Source of the DNA: Armatimonadota bacterium
Lineage (GTDB): Bacteria; Armatimonadota; DTGP01; JAKQQT01
DNA length: 64,000 bases
Direction of reading: 5' to 3'
Assembly: GCA_036504855.1 (NCBI GenBank)
Contig: DASXUL010000075.1
Coordinates: forward strand, 12,655-76,654
The notes beneath the pieces were generated by a model. It saw only the letters and a program-made list of their open reading frames with translations. It did no database searches and was not told where the DNA came from. Position numbers and translations under genes: made by a program. Numbering within the stretch: position 1 is the stretch's first letter; every line of letters begins with the position of its first letter. Below are positions 5,937-17,031 of this stretch, in pieces.

Positions 5937-7079
5937 CTACATCCCCGGATACGGCCCCACGGCCTTCTCCTCATAGAGCAGCGTGGTGGATCCCAGGGTG
6001 ATGACGCAGCCGCCCGCCAGCCGGGTTGCGCGGACTGGTTGGCCGTTGACGGCGGGCGGGTTCTGCGCGTCCAGGGCCATCAGCACGCGTTCGGAGCCGC
6101 GATCCTCGATCACGGCCTGCTCCGGGGAGACGCCGGGGTCCTTGAAGAGGGTGATCTCACATTTCGGGCTGCTGCCGAGGCGCGTCCGCTGCTCGTAGAG
6201 GATGAACTGTTTGCCCGCCAGCGGACCGGATGTAACGCTGAGCCAGGCCTCCTTGCGCATCTGGTCTACCAAACCGATGGCGAGGCCGGCCGCCACGCCG
6301 AGCACGGTGATGCCCACGGCGCGGCTCATGGTTCCGGTATCGCCGGCGCCGAACCGCGTCACCATGCCGATGGGGTCGAACATCACGCCGGCGGCGAAGC
6401 CGCCGATGAGCCCGCCCAGCACTCCGTTCACGACGCGCTTGCCGGAGCCGCGCCCGATCCCCTGCCCCAGTCCGATGCAGGTCCCCACGATGGACCAGCC
6501 CACGATGCGCGCCAGCATGACGTTGGGCAGCGATGGCTGGCCGCTGCCGATGAGCACGCCGAAGCAAAGTTGTCCGATGGCGCCGCCCACGAAGCCGCCG
6601 CCGGCTCCAATGGCGAGGCCGACGAGGGCGGCCATGGCGGCCTTCTGGAAGGCGCGCGCCTCGATGCCCTCGGCGGCGCCCAGGCACATGCCGATGACGC
6701 CGCCCATGAGCGCGCCAAACCCGCCCATCGCCGCGATCATCTGCCCCATGCTGGTAGTCTCGGACTGCCAGCCCACCATCGCTTCGCTGAGGGCCCACGC
6801 CACCGCTCCGCCAACCAGCCCGGCAATGGCGGACGGGGCCAGCGCCTGCGCGGAGACGCCCGAGGGGTACTGCGTCTTCGTCTTCCCAGGCCCGTAGCCC
6901 ATCGGCCCCGGAACCATGGGACGGGGCGGCGCCGCTGGACGGTCTGGCGCGTTGCGCAGGTCGTCGGCGGTAATGACGATGCGGTTGGCGCCGGGCGTGG
7001 GGGCTTCCGCCTCCGGCGCCGGCGGTTTCGGCTGTTCATCATCGCCGTCGAACGATATCTCCACGCGGTTGTGGCTCAT
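5937..7079 (-). CDS. FHA-domain protein with a Gly-rich (glycine-zipper) multi-TM core; last gene of the Ubl-conjugation locus
   Basis: 380 aa. The centre is a GxxxG-rich hydrophobic block (GGFGALMGGVIGMCLGAAEG...). The C-terminal ~100 aa match the FHA pattern (GSSPKCEITL...VSPEQAVIE...). Confidence 0.55.
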   Translation of the reverse strand: MSHNRVEISFDGDDEQPKPPAPEAEAPTPGANRIVITADDLRNAPDRPAAPPRPMVPGPMGYGPGKTKTQYPSGVSAQALAPSAIAGLVGGAVAWALSEAMVGWQSETTSMGQMIAAMGGFGALMGGVIGMCLGAAEGIEARAFQKAAMAALVGLAIGAGGGFVGGAIGQLCFGVLIGSGQPSLPNVMLARIVGWSIVGTCIGLGQGIGRGSGKRVVNGVLGGLIGGFAAGVMFDPIGMVTRFGAGDTGTMSRAVGITVLGVAAGLAIGLVDQMRKEAWLSVTSGPLAGKQFILYEQRTRLGSSPKCEITLFKDPGVSPEQAVIEDRGSERVLMALDAQNPPAVNGQPVRATRLAGGCVITLGSTTLLYEEKAVGPYPGM

Positions 7080-7095
7080 GGGGCGCCCGCATTCA

Positions 7096-7623
7096 TCAGA
7101 AGAGCTGGATCTCGAGGTCGTCTCGCGCGGGGGCGGCGGCGCCCAGCGTAATGGCCACCTCGGGTTGGAGGATGTTGATATTGCCGACCGGGAGCATGTT
7201 CCGGTTCTGGACGGCCCAGCGCGCCGCGGCGGCGTTGAGCGGGCTCTTGGGGTTGTAGGTCTTGTACTGGATCATGTCGCCGATCTGCACGATGACGTCG
7301 ACCAGCGTCTCGCCGGCGGCCCAATGGTCGCCGATGCAGATGAAGGAGCCGAAGTTGGGGTGCCAGATGGGGGTCTTCAACACGCACTTGGGCTTCTCGC
7401 GCGGGTAGTCCGCGTGCAGGTAGATTTCGGCCACATGCTGACGCGCCGCAACGGGCGCGTTGCGGGTCGAGTCCCACACCAGGCCGGGCAGGTTGAACGT
7501 AACGATGTAGCGTTCGGGCGGGATGCCGGGCGCGGCGGGCTCCACCTTCACGAAGGGGTGTCCGGAAAACTCATTGCGGATCTTCTGCCAGTCCGCCGAC
7601 AGGCGCATCAACCTCGGGTTCAC
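7096..7623 (-). CDS. ubiquitin-conjugating enzyme E2-like (UBC fold) protein, paralog 1
   Basis: 175 aa with the hallmark E2 motif 'WHPNFGSFICIGDHW' (HPN, then the catalytic Cys 7 residues downstream). An upstream YxxxxP segment is present. Confidence 0.7.
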   Translation of the reverse strand: MNPRLMRLSADWQKIRNEFSGHPFVKVEPAAPGIPPERYIVTFNLPGLVWDSTRNAPVAARQHVAEIYLHADYPREKPKCVLKTPIWHPNFGSFICIGDHWAAGETLVDVIVQIGDMIQYKTYNPKSPLNAAAARWAVQNRNMLPVGNINILQPEVAITLGAAAPARDDLEIQLF

Positions 7624-7639
7624 ATGTACCTCAATCTGA

Positions 7640-14733: not shown

Positions 14734-15237
14734 ACGGCTGTCTCCCAGCGAAATCGAGATGTCGGAACGCACGTCCAGGATCGGCGCCGGATCCACCGGG
14801 AAGGCGGAGCGGTGCGCCGCCACCCAGGCGGCGGCGTTGGTGTCTAGCGCGTCGGACGTGCTGAAATTCTTGTACTGCACCATCTCCCCGATGCGGATGA
14901 CCAGTTGGTCCAGCGTCTCGGCCGGGCTCCAGCGTCCGATGCAGACGCCGCCGTTGCGCCGGGGCGGAAGGATATTGGGGTGGAAGATCTCGGTGAGCCA
15001 CTGGATGCGCGGCGGCAGGCGCGGGTAGTCCAGATGCAGGTAGATCTCCATCTCGTGGTGGCTCGTTACGGCCGGGCCCGGCGCGCCGGGCAACCAGACG
15101 AGCCCGCGGCATGAGTAGGTCACGCGGTAGCGGTCGCCCAGCGCGTTTTGCGGTTGGACGGAGATGAGCGTGCTGCGCTGGCCGAGTTCCTGGAGGCGCC
15201 GGCCATCGGCCTGGAGGCGCAAGCTCCGAACATCCAT
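14731..15237 (-). CDS. ubiquitin-conjugating enzyme E2-like (UBC fold) protein, paralog 2
   Basis: 168 aa. 'EIFHPNILPPRRNGGVCIGRW' carries the HPN ... Cys E2 active-site motif. Confidence 0.7.
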   Translation of the reverse strand: MDVRSLRLQADGRRLQELGQRSTLISVQPQNALGDRYRVTYSCRGLVWLPGAPGPAVTSHHEMEIYLHLDYPRLPPRIQWLTEIFHPNILPPRRNGGVCIGRWSPAETLDQLVIRIGEMVQYKNFSTSDALDTNAAAWVAAHRSAFPVDPAPILDVRSDISISLGDSR

Positions 15238-15441
15238 GGATCATCCCCCGGAAGGCGAAGAGGTTGCGGGCGAGTGGCCCATGGCCCGGTCTGGTCGTCC
15301 GCCCAGCCGTCTGGCGCGGGAAGGGATACTGGCAGGAACGAACGTTGGGCGCGCCCGGAGAATCAGATCGCTCTCCAACGCGCCCGAACACGCTCATTTT
15401 AGCACAGCCCCACGACTTATAGAGTGCGGCGGCCCGCCAAG

Positions 15442-17031
15442 TTAGCGCACGCGGCGCCGGCCGCGCCTCAACAGCCCCAGCAGGACGGCCACGCCTAGCA
15501 CGCCGCCGCCCACCGCCGCGCCATCGCCCGCCGTCCCGCCGCCGCTAACCCACAGGGCCGCCAGAACCGCTAACCCGTGCGCCAGCCACGCCACGCGAAT
15601 CAGCGCCGGGTGCACGGCGCCATCCCAGAACTGGCGCAGCCGGCCTCTCCACCCAGACCCCGCGCGCGCGTAAGCCGGCAGGGCCACGATGCGGCGGAGT
15701 CGTCCCGATTGCCAGCTTATCAGCGCCGCGTTCACGAGTCCGGCGCCGGCGGCGCCAAGCCAGACCGGATGCTGCGCGGCAACACCAATGGCAGCCCAGC
15801 TCGCCGTGAGCGCCCATGCCGCGACGCTCCATGCGGTGGGGGCGAAGGCCAGCGCCTTCTTCGGCGGACGCTCCGGCCACACGTCATGGTCCCGGCCATG
15901 GATGAAGATCTCCACTCCTGTCCTCGGCCGGGGCCTCTGCCGGCGGTAGCGGTCCGGCGCAGCAACTTCCACGGGGCTAAGGAGATAACCGTGGACGGCG
16001 GTGATCGGGACCGCCCGCGCGGTGTAGTCCTGCTGAAGGATGATCCGCCCTTCGGCCTCGGTGGGCTGGCCGTCCCGGATGGTGCGCACCGTTTCGCGCA
16101 ACCGCGGGATATCCAGGGCGTTGGCGCGCGCCACATATTCCCGGATTCCCGGCGTGCCCGGCGGCGTGGGCCCGCCCAGGAGCTCATCGGTGAGCAAACG
16201 GGCGGACTGCCGGTCTACCAGGACGCCCGCGGAGCGCTCGATGACCTCGCGCGGGAGGCCCGGCGGCTGGATGCACGCGGTGTGGGTAACAACGCTGTCA
16301 TCAACGATGCCGGTCTGCCAGCGTCGAATGCGCCCCACCTGTCCACAGCGGGCGCAGCCGCTGGGAGCGCCGCCGCAAAACGGGCATGTCACGGTTTGCT
16401 CGGAGCCTTCGATAAGGAACTCTCGATGCCCCTCCTCGAACGTGCCGGCCGGGCCAGTGTGGAACGGCCACGCCGCGACGGGCAGGCCGGCCGGCCGCGC
16501 GTTGGGCGCATCCGGCGCCTCGTGAGACTCCAGGCGCTGCTCGCGCACGCGCGTGTGCATTTCAATGAGATACGCCACCGTATCCTGCTGGCGCGCGATG
16601 AGGAGGCGTTCGCCCAGGGCTCCGATCTGGCTGCCCATGGCTGCGGCGTTGCTCCAGCGGTTGATGATGCCAACCACGGTATTGCGGCTCAGGGGGGCCA
16701 GCCACGTGGCGTCGGAAACGACGGGCTCCAGCGTGAGGTCAATCGGCGGGGCCGGCGGAGCGGAGGGTGCGGGCTGGGCGGCCGGCAACCGGGCGGCCTT
16801 TTTCGGGCGGGGCGCCATTTCGCACCCGAAGGACGTGCACCCGCCGTTCTCCGCCCAGCACTCTTCGTGGTGGGGCATGCCGCACCGCGCGCAGACGCGA
16901 ACGGGCGCCTGCGGCTTGATGGGCGCCTGGCAGAACGGGCACGTTTTCCCCACAACGTCGAAGGCATTGGGCGGCTGGCTCACCGATTTGGCTCCATGCT
17001 GAGTTCGGCGGCAGCGTCGCCGCCATTCCAT
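15442..17031 (-). CDS. large membrane protein with an N-terminal RING-like zinc finger (ZnF-D), a second CxxC...CxxC zinc ribbon and a multi-TM C-terminus; probable first gene of the Ubl locus
   Basis: Start ATG at 17031 (MEWRRR...), 13 nt after a GGAG. 'GKTCPFCQAPIKPQAPVRVCARCGMPHHEECWAENGGCTSFGC'. Second ribbon 'CPFCGGAPSGCARCGQ'. Only this portion of the 1173-aa track ORF is supported. Confidence 0.5.
   Translation of the reverse strand: MEWRRRCRRTQHGAKSVSQPPNAFDVVGKTCPFCQAPIKPQAPVRVCARCGMPHHEECWAENGGCTSFGCEMAPRPKKAARLPAAQPAPSAPPAPPIDLTLEPVVSDATWLAPLSRNTVVGIINRWSNAAAMGSQIGALGERLLIARQQDTVAYLIEMHTRVREQRLESHEAPDAPNARPAGLPVAAWPFHTGPAGTFEEGHREFLIEGSEQTVTCPFCGGAPSGCARCGQVGRIRRWQTGIVDDSVVTHTACIQPPGLPREVIERSAGVLVDRQSARLLTDELLGGPTPPGTPGIREYVARANALDIPRLRETVRTIRDGQPTEAEGRIILQQDYTARAVPITAVHGYLLSPVEVAAPDRYRRQRPRPRTGVEIFIHGRDHDVWPERPPKKALAFAPTAWSVAAWALTASWAAIGVAAQHPVWLGAAGAGLVNAALISWQSGRLRRIVALPAYARAGSGWRGRLRQFWDGAVHPALIRVAWLAHGLAVLAALWVSGGGTAGDGAAVGGGVLGVAVLLGLLRRGRRRVR

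Follow-up and report, generated by a model that had tools for sequence, protein, structure and literature searches.

The stretch of DNA analysed here (the window) comprises 64,000 nucleotides (nt) from contig DASXUL010000075.1 of an Armatimonadota bacterium (assembly GCA_036504855.1). At positions 5937-17031 it carries 12 co-directional genes on the minus strand, which encode an E1, two E2s, a ubiquitin-like protein (Ubl), two JAB peptidases, four RING membrane proteins, an S1 protease and a transmembrane (TM) protein with an FHA domain. Domains were called with Pfam profiles, and all calls lie above the curated gathering cut-offs. Conjugation of the Ubl by these enzymes is very likely, and the locus as a whole is probably a complete, largely membrane-organised system for Ubl conjugation and deconjugation that serves an accessory role in stress or defence. 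An initial annotation of the same DNA spoke of thirteen genes, a miscount of its own twelve-item list; its gene coordinates are otherwise correct, and the S1 protease gene, for which it gave none, lies at 13847-14734.

Transcription begins with a RING membrane protein (g12, 15442-17031) and proceeds through the UBC-type E2b (g11, 14731-15237), the HtrA/DegS-like S1 protease (g10), the 90-amino-acid (aa) beta-grasp Ubl (g9, 13513-13785), the ThiF-type E1 (g8, 12274-13512) and two JAMM peptidases, JAB2-LysM (g7, 11231-12235) and JAB1 (g6, 10048-11217). Three more RING membrane proteins follow (g5, 9390-10004; the RING-CD225 protein g4, 8591-9376; and g3, 7753-8556), then the second UBC-type E2, E2a (g2, 7096-7623), and last the glycine-zipper membrane protein TM-FHA (g1, 5937-7079). 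Gaps of 0-60 nt had been claimed throughout. This is nearly so for nine of the 11 junctions, which measure between -4 and 61 nt, but not for g3-g2 (129 nt, with a long hairpin inside) or g12-g11 (204 nt). The start codon of the S1 gene, a TTG, overlaps with the stop of E2b (TTGA), and the Ubl stop runs into the E1 start without a gap (TGA-ATG), as had been noted before. Paralogy is still recognisable in the DNA itself among the four RING-coding segments, between the two JAB genes and between the two E2 genes. Scans of the locus for promoters and terminators did no better than on shuffled sequence, an Rfam search of the locus found no match, and the 204-nt g12-g11 gap folds as RNA like its shuffles (z=-0.6).

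In a hydropathy scan eight of the 12 proteins come out with TM segments, while E1, Ubl, E2a and E2b are predicted to be soluble. The RING, JAB, E2 and FHA domains are predicted to lie on the cytoplasmic side of the membrane; the LysM domain, the S1 protease domain and the C-terminal domains of g3 and JAB1 are predicted to be extracytoplasmic.

The locus is bordered on one side by a fucose-isomerase-like gene and on the other by CheY, CheX and CheA genes on the opposite strand. The CheY-CheX-CheA set (17182-20825, plus strand) is divergent from the Ubl operon; this adjacency is probably coincidental, since it is not conserved in relatives.

A JGI metagenome contig is identical to the window, and an Armatimonadota metagenome-assembled genome encodes a protein identical to its E1. 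The JGI calls shorten g3 (to 164 aa) and g12 (to 458 aa), dropping both RING fingers, and a spurious opposite-strand open reading frame (ORF) is placed over the RING of g3. The Ubl is named 'EsaB/YukD family' by NCBI and JGI, and the E1 'ThiF family adenylyltransferase' or 'molybdopterin/thiamine biosynthesis adenylyltransferase'; under such labels the system is hidden in the public databases. NCBIfam has no dedicated family for the proteins of the locus, every match being below cut-off.

Relatives were sought by scanning one genome of each species with a degenerate pattern. This yielded at least 541 relatives of E1, of which the best 80 were analysed, and the alignments of homologues were built from these 80 related loci. 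The 80 E1s are 51-65% identical to that of the window over the best-matching segment, and come from 80 species genomes in about seven phyla (Armatimonadota, many Clostridia, Planctomycetota, Aminicenantes, Synergistales, WS1 and Chitinophagales). Cultured carriers are Clostridium weizhouense YB-6, Tissierella creatinini BN11, Massiliimalia massiliensis, two Anoxynatronum species and Lachnospiraceae LC2019. Neighbours of E1 were counted in 82 loci, namely the 80 and the window's own contigs (L001 and L002); many contigs are short, so that the counts are lower bounds. The neighbours are a Ubl in 81 loci, a JAB in 76, an E2 in 74, a Prok-RING in 63, a TM-FHA protein in about 60 and an S1 protease in 59, in the usual order (RING)-Ubl-E1-E2/TM/FHA-S1-JAB-RING-JAB. 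Its recurrence in the genomes of 80 other species shows that the arrangement is not due to chance. The conserved synteny for which the initial annotation had proposed a check thus holds across about seven phyla, and the system is no curiosity of a single bin but a conserved module, made up of seven to eight components, that at least 80 species possess.

The same survey divides what had been described as an expanded locus into two parts. To the family's conserved core belong S1, TM-FHA, RING and the two JABs, whereas the second E2 (paired with S1), the extra RING genes and the CD225/MshEN fusions are specific to the Armatimonadota branch. Among the relatives, 17 Clostridial loci have double-zinc-ribbon proteins with TM segments upstream of the Ubl, and in eight loci FHA-ABC ATPases lie nearby. 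One contig labelled Escherichia coli (L029, CAVGWF010000065.1, cleanbin) carries a Clostridia-type copy that closely parallels the locus L030 of a Clostridiales metagenome-assembled genome, and this contig is probably mis-binned or a contaminant.

The Ubl matches the Pfam profile YukD (1.8e-12). Its AlphaFold (AF2) model (predicted local distance difference test score, pLDDT, 92) has the beta-beta-alpha-beta-beta order of a ubiquitin-type beta-grasp, and the closest folds in the PDB are ubiquitin variants, Caldiarchaeum Ub, bacterial BilA, SUMO and NEDD8, with template-modelling scores (TM-scores) of about 0.7. The C-terminus reads ...DVLRLLPEITAG-A, in which Gly89 (13519-13521) is followed by one removable Ala. 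The precursor tail of the window Ubl (...LRLLPEITAG/A, with the stroke after Gly89) is a version of the near-invariant family tail ...DVLRLQPEITAG (...LRLQPEITAG); residues P84-E-I-T-A-G89 are 94-100% conserved in homologues, and Gly89 is 100% conserved in the alignment. In 25 of the 81 homologues the Ubl ends exactly at this Gly. The remainder carry extensions, which are 1-10 residues long or, in some Clostridia, consist of an entire in-frame C-terminal partner, either a zinc-ribbon-TM protein or a lipoprotein precursor with signal peptide and lipobox. Extended Ubl ORFs of 196-262 aa occur in L016, L019, L025, L027, L029, L030 and L035, and further fusion precursors in L066 (8669-9892) and L072 (8418-9926); these recall eukaryotic ubiquitin fusion genes. 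Extensions and partners that begin after an invariant Gly point to a Ubl that needs processing at the Gly and then activation. Relatives of the Ubl fall into 577 clusters at 90% identity (E<=1e-8), the family being diverse despite its sparse occurrence.

E1 has 412 aa and a single adenylation domain (Pfam ThiF, 5e-54), with the nucleotide-binding motif GAGALGNE at 13318-13341. Among PDB sequences it matches the eukaryotic UBA7/UBA1 (7e-31) better than MoeB (1e-18) and ThiF (5e-17), and the ThiF/MoeB equivalogs of NCBIfam give it 124 bits against cut-offs of 275-449. The AF2 model (pLDDT 83) is disordered at residues 1-30 and 201-213. In Foldseek searches the adenylation domain matches ThiF, MoeB and UBA5, and full-length alignments are obtained only with UBA3, a protein with a C-terminal ubiquitin-fold domain (UFD). 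The C-terminal region of E1 is a putative UFD-like domain with a 4-Cys zinc ribbon; for this domain (residues 285-412, pLDDT ~90) the UBA3 alignment exists only as part of the full-length one (~460 columns, TMq 0.53, root-mean-square deviation ~12 A). Nine cysteines are invariant in 16 homologues (Cys162/191/194/210/279/329/332/352/355). Cys210 (12883-12885) is the candidate for the catalytic cysteine because it is invariant and lies in the flexible crossover loop, which is disordered in the model.

Both E2s match Pfam UQ_con, E2a at 6e-9 and E2b at 7e-11. E2a has H88-P89-N90 at 7354-7362 and Cys96 at 7336-7338; E2b has H86-P87-N88 at 14974-14982 and Cys99 at 14941-14943. The HPN and the catalytic Cys are 100% conserved in 76 homologues. 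PDB sequences matched by E2a are the eukaryotic E2-25K, Ubc13 and UbcH5, and the GTG start chosen for E2a is supported by the conservation of R4, R7 and D11. In 43 relatives the E2 is fused to a TM-FHA protein of the g1 type, as it is in most Clostridia; the neighbouring E2a and g1 genes of the window are the split counterpart of these E2-TM-FHA fusions. The E2b-S1 pair is found upstream of the Ubl in Armatimonadota, WS1 and Syntrophomonas loci.

Four membrane proteins match Prok-RING_1 (PF14446), with 30.8-39.2 bits against a cut-off of 29.1 bits (3e-7 to 7e-10). The ligands, C-x2-C-x12-C-x2-C-x4-H-x2-C-x6-C-x4-C, form a C4HC3 pattern and are 96-100% conserved in 97 homologues. The initial annotation had taken the four proteins as candidate E3s on account of a binuclear zinc-finger motif, a reading we accept because the fingers belong to this Pfam family. 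In g12 the finger (6.9e-10, residues 27-66) is followed by a cytoplasmic region of ~300 aa, which contains a further CxxC..CxxC zinc ribbon, and by C-terminal TM helices; its middle domain is specific to the lineage, and the middle and C-terminal regions were found in no contigs but the window's own. The finger of g5 (1.7e-9) precedes a Gly/Pro/Tyr-rich linker and TM helices, and the C-terminal part of this protein is common to the Armatimonadota loci L003 and L004. A GspE-N/MshEN-like domain (MshEN, 1.1e-6), the finger (2.9e-7) and CD225 (5e-21, a dispanin two-TM hairpin) are joined in g4, an architecture that recurs in L005; we considered the MshEN domain as a cyclic di-GMP sensor and rejected this, as only a generic GspE-N-like fold is supported. 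The finger of g3 (1.9e-8, residues 12-54) requires a TTG start, and is followed by one TM segment (86-114) and a helical extracytoplasmic domain of ~150 aa. Among the RING proteins surveyed 92 of 104 have TM helices, with the finger before the first of these in 90, and three Planctomycetota loci have RING, TM and S1 in a single protein.

The two JABs share the JAMM residues E..HxHx7SxxD, which are 99-100% conserved in 116 JAB homologues. JAB2 (Pfam JAB 1.6e-11, LysM 5e-9) has them as E53 and H117-x-H119...S127..D130 (11846-11887), and one TM segment (193-221) separates the peptidase from the extracytoplasmic LysM. JAB1 (Prok-JAB 6.9e-9, JAB 1e-8) has the JAMM sequence HTHPGLGVFFSEQD at residue 132, one TM segment and an alpha-helical C-terminal domain that is weakly TPR-like (TPR matches below cut-off). 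With these, every fold and domain named in the initial annotation has been recovered by Pfam matches above cut-off and AlphaFold models, the UBC, E1 and beta-grasp folds included, and its HPN-Cys and JAMM residues have proved 99-100% conserved in 76 and 116 homologues, respectively.

The S1 protease (Pfam Trypsin_2, 9e-34) has the triad H62/D92/S162, 98-100% conserved in 60 homologues. It had been called a secreted-type protease: the signal peptide (MRARLSALLALALAVPAGA) is indeed present, but a C-terminal TM segment (237-259) anchors the protein in the membrane and leaves a basic cytoplasmic tail of 36 residues. It scores 187 bits (5e-55) with the NCBIfam model degP_htrA, under the cut-off of 416 bits, and Pfam finds no PDZ domain, the C-terminus being the TM helix and cytoplasmic tail instead. 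Its sequence suggests a protein that works like the protease domain of HtrA without being a canonical member of HtrA/DegP/DegS.

TM-FHA has about six glycine-zipper TM segments and then a cytoplasmic C-terminal FHA domain (5937-6260), for which the best model is the cytoplasmic domain of the type III secretion protein YscD (Yop-YscD_cpl 2e-11; FHA 8e-8). In canonical FHA domains, which bind phosphothreonine, a Gly-Arg and a Ser-x-x-His contact the phosphate. The FHA domain of g1 lacks this Arg and this Ser and keeps the His and an Asn-Gly. Across the family the canonical GR is GN or GS in 56 of 58 proteins, the Ser of SxxH is Gly or Ala in 43 of 58, and a juxtamembrane K-x-A-W-L is invariant. 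Judging from these substitutions, the FHA domain of the family probably binds its partner without phosphorylation.

An acidic motif, D-[LIV]-[DES]-I-x-L, is found at a terminus of six of the 12 window proteins. It is N-terminal in E1 (MADDLDITL, 13486-13512), JAB2 (EDVDLDITL, 12190-12235) and JAB1 (HDDIDIRL, 11190-11217), and C-terminal in E2a (DDLEIQLF, at the extreme end, 7096-7125), E2b (SDISISLGDSR, 14731-14765) and the cytoplasmic end of S1 (DDLDIELK, 13847-13875). Three of the copies are similar even in DNA, while the Ubl and most RING proteins have none. A broader form, D-[LIVF]-[DES]-[IV]-x-[LIF], describes the motif in the window and in the loci L003-L082 together. In S1 homologues the motif lies within 15 residues of the C-terminus in 42 of 59, as against three of 2144 background ORFs (Fisher p=3e-71). 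E2a-type relatives have it at the extreme C-terminus or, in the fusion proteins, right after the UBC domain; 36 of 116 JAB homologues have it at the N-terminus; and the E1 N-termini of relatives have a looser I-E-L or LDVDL version. The E1 copy is disordered in the model, as a linear docking motif would be. We infer that the motif recruits all the enzymes to one partner, most likely the Ubl, by strand addition like that of a SUMO-interacting motif (SIM) or an LC3-interacting region (LIR), or else the RING proteins. The FHA domain is a less likely receptor, since it lacks the phosphate-binding Arg and Ser, and since two Anoxynatronum loci in which neither FHA nor S1 lies within reach still have the motif on their E2.

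From these parts a cycle of conjugation and deconjugation can be proposed, its order following the established E1-E2-RING mechanism. A JAB peptidase would trim the Ubl precursor and expose Gly89. E1 would adenylate Gly89 and then hold the Ubl as a thioester on Cys210 of the crossover loop, from where it would pass to the HPN-Cys site of an E2, Cys96 of E2a or Cys99 of E2b. The cytoplasmic N-terminal RING fingers of the four membrane proteins would position the charged E2; being cytoplasmic and on membrane proteins, they would place the tagging at the inner face of the membrane. The two membrane-anchored JABs would reverse the tag. LysM, the HtrA-like S1, the variable ectodomains and the CD225 hairpin may provide envelope input or action, the six-TM glycine-zipper FHA protein may be a scaffold, and the D-phi-D-I-x-L tails could act as docking peptides for one common partner.

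As to what the cycle is for, an accessory, horizontally moving module for stress response or defence is most likely. This is the leading reading because the flanks are not conserved and because regulator pairs of a kind known from defence operons accompany about ten Clostridial copies. In no relative, the 14 Armatimonadota loci included, does a gene from the flanks of the window locus recur beside the cassette. An HTH_3 (XRE-type) and a Peptidase_M78 (ImmA/IrrE) gene stand directly upstream on the same strand in L016, L019, L020, L025, L027, L029, L030, L031, L035 and L042; the M78 proteins of these pairs have a C-terminal TM segment and a Cys-rich tail. The pairs resemble CapH+CapP, which switch on CBASS (cyclic-oligonucleotide-based antiphage signalling system), Bub and other defence operons upon phage infection or DNA damage and which precede many Bub operons (PMC11601596). 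Tyrosine recombinases occur in four loci. The initial annotation had preferred an envelope-targeted tagging machine to a defence cassette, a preference that the differing flanks and the Clostridial regulator pairs leave without support.

Several points weigh against the proposed system and its role. The steps of the cycle were read from sequences, models and synteny, and the number of TM segments in g1 comes from a simple hydropathy scan. The RING fingers may serve as adaptors that lack E3 activity. Neither a target nor a reader or effector of the proteasome or Cdc48 kind is encoded by the locus. Its core proteins are far better conserved than defence genes tend to be: among the Ubl matches listed, the best 120 all have at least 73% identity. 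The Ubl was not found in plasmid or phage collections, no PADLOC model matches the E2, Ubl, RING or FHA, and the window locus lacks a CapH/CapP-like regulator, its flanks being sugar-catabolism and chemotaxis genes.

Some of these points speak for the main rival, which keeps the same biochemistry and gives it a housekeeping role, either in quality control of membrane proteins, similar to endoplasmic-reticulum-associated degradation, or in envelope and cell-wall signalling. Membrane RINGs and a tethered E2 would tag membrane proteins, and the HtrA-like protease and LysM would report the state of the envelope or peptidoglycan. Eight of the 12 proteins are in the membrane, HtrA/DegS-like proteases and LysM are classical envelope modules, and the 43 fusions of E2 to TM segments recall Ubc6, a tail-anchored E2 that works with the RING E3s Doa10 and Hrd1. 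The Ubl, E1 and E2 are also extremely conserved, no PADLOC system match and no plasmid or phage copy of the Ubl was found, and the flanks in the window are housekeeping genes. A housekeeping function fits poorly, however, with the patchy spread of the system (a search of 1.84 billion representative proteins with E2a gave only 693 matching clusters at 50% identity, E<=1e-10), with flanks that differ in every relative, the 14 Armatimonadota loci included, with CapH/CapP-like regulators in about ten loci and tyrosine recombinases in four, and with a locus that encodes no unfoldase or degradation partner. We regard it as unlikely, though worth keeping in view.

A second rival takes the label in the public databases at its word. 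The Ubl would be an EsaB/YukD-type accessory of a type VII secretion system (T7SS), acting non-covalently, and the locus a secretion or assembly apparatus. YukD is the best Pfam profile of the Ubl, NCBI and JGI name it accordingly, there is a weak match to TIGR03920 EccD, and FHA domains and membrane proteins occur in T7SS too. It also counts for this rival that YukD of B. subtilis is reported as not conjugated (PMC1779556). Against it, FtsK/EssC ATPase, WXG100/ESAT-6, YukC and YueB were not found in the window locus, T7SS genes are not among the recurrent flanking families of relatives, and in 80 genomes the Ubl gene has E1, UBC E2s, RINGs and JABs as neighbours. Removable extensions follow an invariant C-terminal Gly, and the closest structural matches of the Ubl model are conjugatable Ubls, not YukD. 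The T7SS reading is thus highly improbable. More improbable still is that E1 and Ubl form a ThiF/MoeB-ThiS/MoaD sulfur-carrier pair among unrelated neighbours: ThiF and MoeB models are the best NCBIfam matches of E1 (all below cut-offs) and public annotation calls it 'ThiF' or molybdopterin/thiamine adenylyltransferase, but the locus has no thiamine, molybdopterin or rhodanese genes or domains, E1 is closer to eukaryotic E1s than to MoeB and ThiF (see above) with a C-terminal domain modelled as UBA3-like, the linkage to E2, RING and JAB is conserved, and the Ubl has an often extended PEITAG tail and a fold like Ub, NEDD8 and SUMO.

Beyond the stress or defence module that we favour, a more far-reaching form of the conjugation reading may be considered, tentatively. 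The locus might be a transmembrane signalling machine, the bacterial counterpart and possibly the evolutionary source of eukaryotic ubiquitination by membrane RINGs and tethered E2s, with SIM/LIR-like docking on the Ubl and, in Clostridia, Ubl fusion precursors. Events outside the cell (peptidoglycan damage sensed through LysM, or S1 proteolysis) would then switch Ubl tagging at the cytoplasmic face, one universal SIM/LIR-like acidic peptide binding the Ubl would gather all the enzymes, and some Clostridial Ubl would, like ubiquitin in eukaryotes, be made as a precursor fused to a zinc-ribbon membrane protein or to a lipoprotein, the Ubl masking the signal peptide of the latter.

Two other elements of the window may be mentioned. 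The g3-g2 gap holds a palindromic element of CAGTNNT heptads (7640-7748, minus strand) that folds into a long hairpin (-56.3 kcal/mol, z=-3.8) and has no match in Rfam. The element is also present at 36747-36815 (36751) and 41940-42070 (42024-42068); there are five matches in the window against 0 expected, and it may be a repetitive extragenic palindromic (REP)-like or miniature inverted-repeat transposable element (MITE)-like element of this genome. The latter two copies bracket a low-GC island at 37.2-41.6 kb. This island (37217-41616, plus strand; GC 0.54-0.55 vs 0.63-0.69) lies beside the prolyl-tRNA synthetase gene and encodes a PAPS-reductase-like protein, a 168-aa protein, a DndB-like protein, an S-adenosylmethionine methyltransferase and an FRG-domain protein. 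Probably the island came in by horizontal transfer and serves DNA modification or defence. The window contains no tRNA gene that could serve as an integration site.

Systems of this kind were foreseen by computation. Burroughs, Iyer and Aravind (Mol Biosyst 2011, 7:2261) reportedly predicted prokaryotic neighbourhoods of E1, E2, RING, JAB and YukD-like Ubl; their abstract is said to describe the HPN and oxyanion-hole residues of the E2, a C-terminal UFD in the E1 and YukD-like Ubls, and Pfam Prok-RING_1 reportedly derives from that work. The five protein classes are common to those systems and to ours, and the RING fingers match PF14446; the Armatimonadota locus differs in its expansion, with two E2s, four RING paralogues and CD225/MshEN-like fusions. 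It is a lineage-expanded example of a computationally predicted kind, for which a family has existed in Pfam ever since the prediction of 2011. We found no experimental study of the bacterial RING-containing E1/E2/Ubl family in the literature, only work on Bil, CBASS, Bub and Caldiarchaeum, and reviews; this agrees with the initial annotation, according to which such neighbourhoods had been predicted and not studied experimentally. A specialist will not be surprised that the system exists. Its membrane organisation, Ubl fusions, terminal motif and cultured carriers are what make its function testable.

Membership in the characterised bacterial systems, which lack an E3, was considered and rejected. 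PADLOC gave no system-level match for the locus, only generic JAB, E1-core and trypsin-domain matches, so that a listed defence system was also rejected. Like the Bil system (BilABCD), which carries out bona fide lysine conjugation, the locus has separate genes for Ubl, E2, JAB and E1 and a beta-grasp Ubl (8tyx_A is among its top folds). The Bil E1, BilD, combines adenylation domains in tandem, inactive and active, with a mobile Cys domain and works without an E3, whereas here there is a single adenylation domain and four RINGs; Bil proteins are cytosolic and those of this locus mostly membrane-bound. The BilD model of PADLOC matches only the nucleotide-binding core of E1 (residues 52-165, 2.4e-9), and none of the PADLOC Bil models surpasses the generic JAB models on the Ubl, E2 or JAB. 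Bacterial E1/E2-type conjugation with a JAB or other peptidase is likewise shared with CBASS Cap2/Cap3 and with Bub. Cap2, however, is an E2-E1 fusion that acts on a CD-NTase, while E1 and E2 are separate genes here, Pfam finds no CD-NTase domain in the 12 proteins, and the PADLOC 'E1-E2' models match the adenylation core only. Bub uses Ser/Tyr oxyester chemistry with a catalytic Ser in the E2 and the DUF6527 serine protease BubE; our locus has an invariant E2 Cys and an S1/HtrA-type protease, and none of its proteins matches DUF6527/PF20137 in Pfam. Bil, type II CBASS and Bub are thus set aside on E1 architecture, E2-E1 fusion, CD-NTase, DUF6527 and the Ser-type E2.

A nearer parallel is archaeal. 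For Caldiarchaeum subterraneum the reconstitution in vitro of its Ub, E1, E2, small RING and Rpn11-like JAB is reported (Hennell James 2017, PMC5654768; Fuchs 2018). Both loci have the five classes in one operon and eukaryote-like UBC E2s, our Ubl model superposes on Caldiarchaeum Ub (6fno_D, TM-score 0.70), and in both a JAB/Rpn11-type peptidase removes, or in our case would remove, the tail of the Ubl precursor. The Caldiarchaeum proteins are soluble and single-copy, whereas the Armatimonadota RINGs and JABs, and in relatives the E2, are membrane-anchored. The present family further differs in a core that adds an HtrA-like protease and a TM-FHA protein, in a Ubl that ends in AG rather than GG, and in its bacterial hosts.

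In eukaryotes the endoplasmic reticulum has the membrane RING E3s Hrd1 and Doa10 and the tail-anchored E2 Ubc6. The likeness of the locus to this machinery is by analogy only, with membrane RINGs whose fingers are cytosolic, a tethered UBC E2 and a eukaryotic-type E1 and Ubl on both sides, and the acidic-hydrophobic strand motifs on the pathway enzymes may be compared with SIM-SUMO and LIR-Atg8 docking. Evidence of homology is confined to the shared domains; there is no Cdc48 or proteasome partner here, and the RING belongs to the C4HC3 Prok-RING_1 type. Judged by its proteins, the family is nevertheless very close to eukaryotic ubiquitination, in the matches of E1 and E2, the HPN-Cys site, the putatively UFD-like tail of E1, the RINGs and the ubiquitin-like tail of the Ubl. 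RING-dependent ubiquitination of a pre-eukaryotic kind, E3 function in bacteria and a role in defence or stress at the level of the envelope can now be tested in it.

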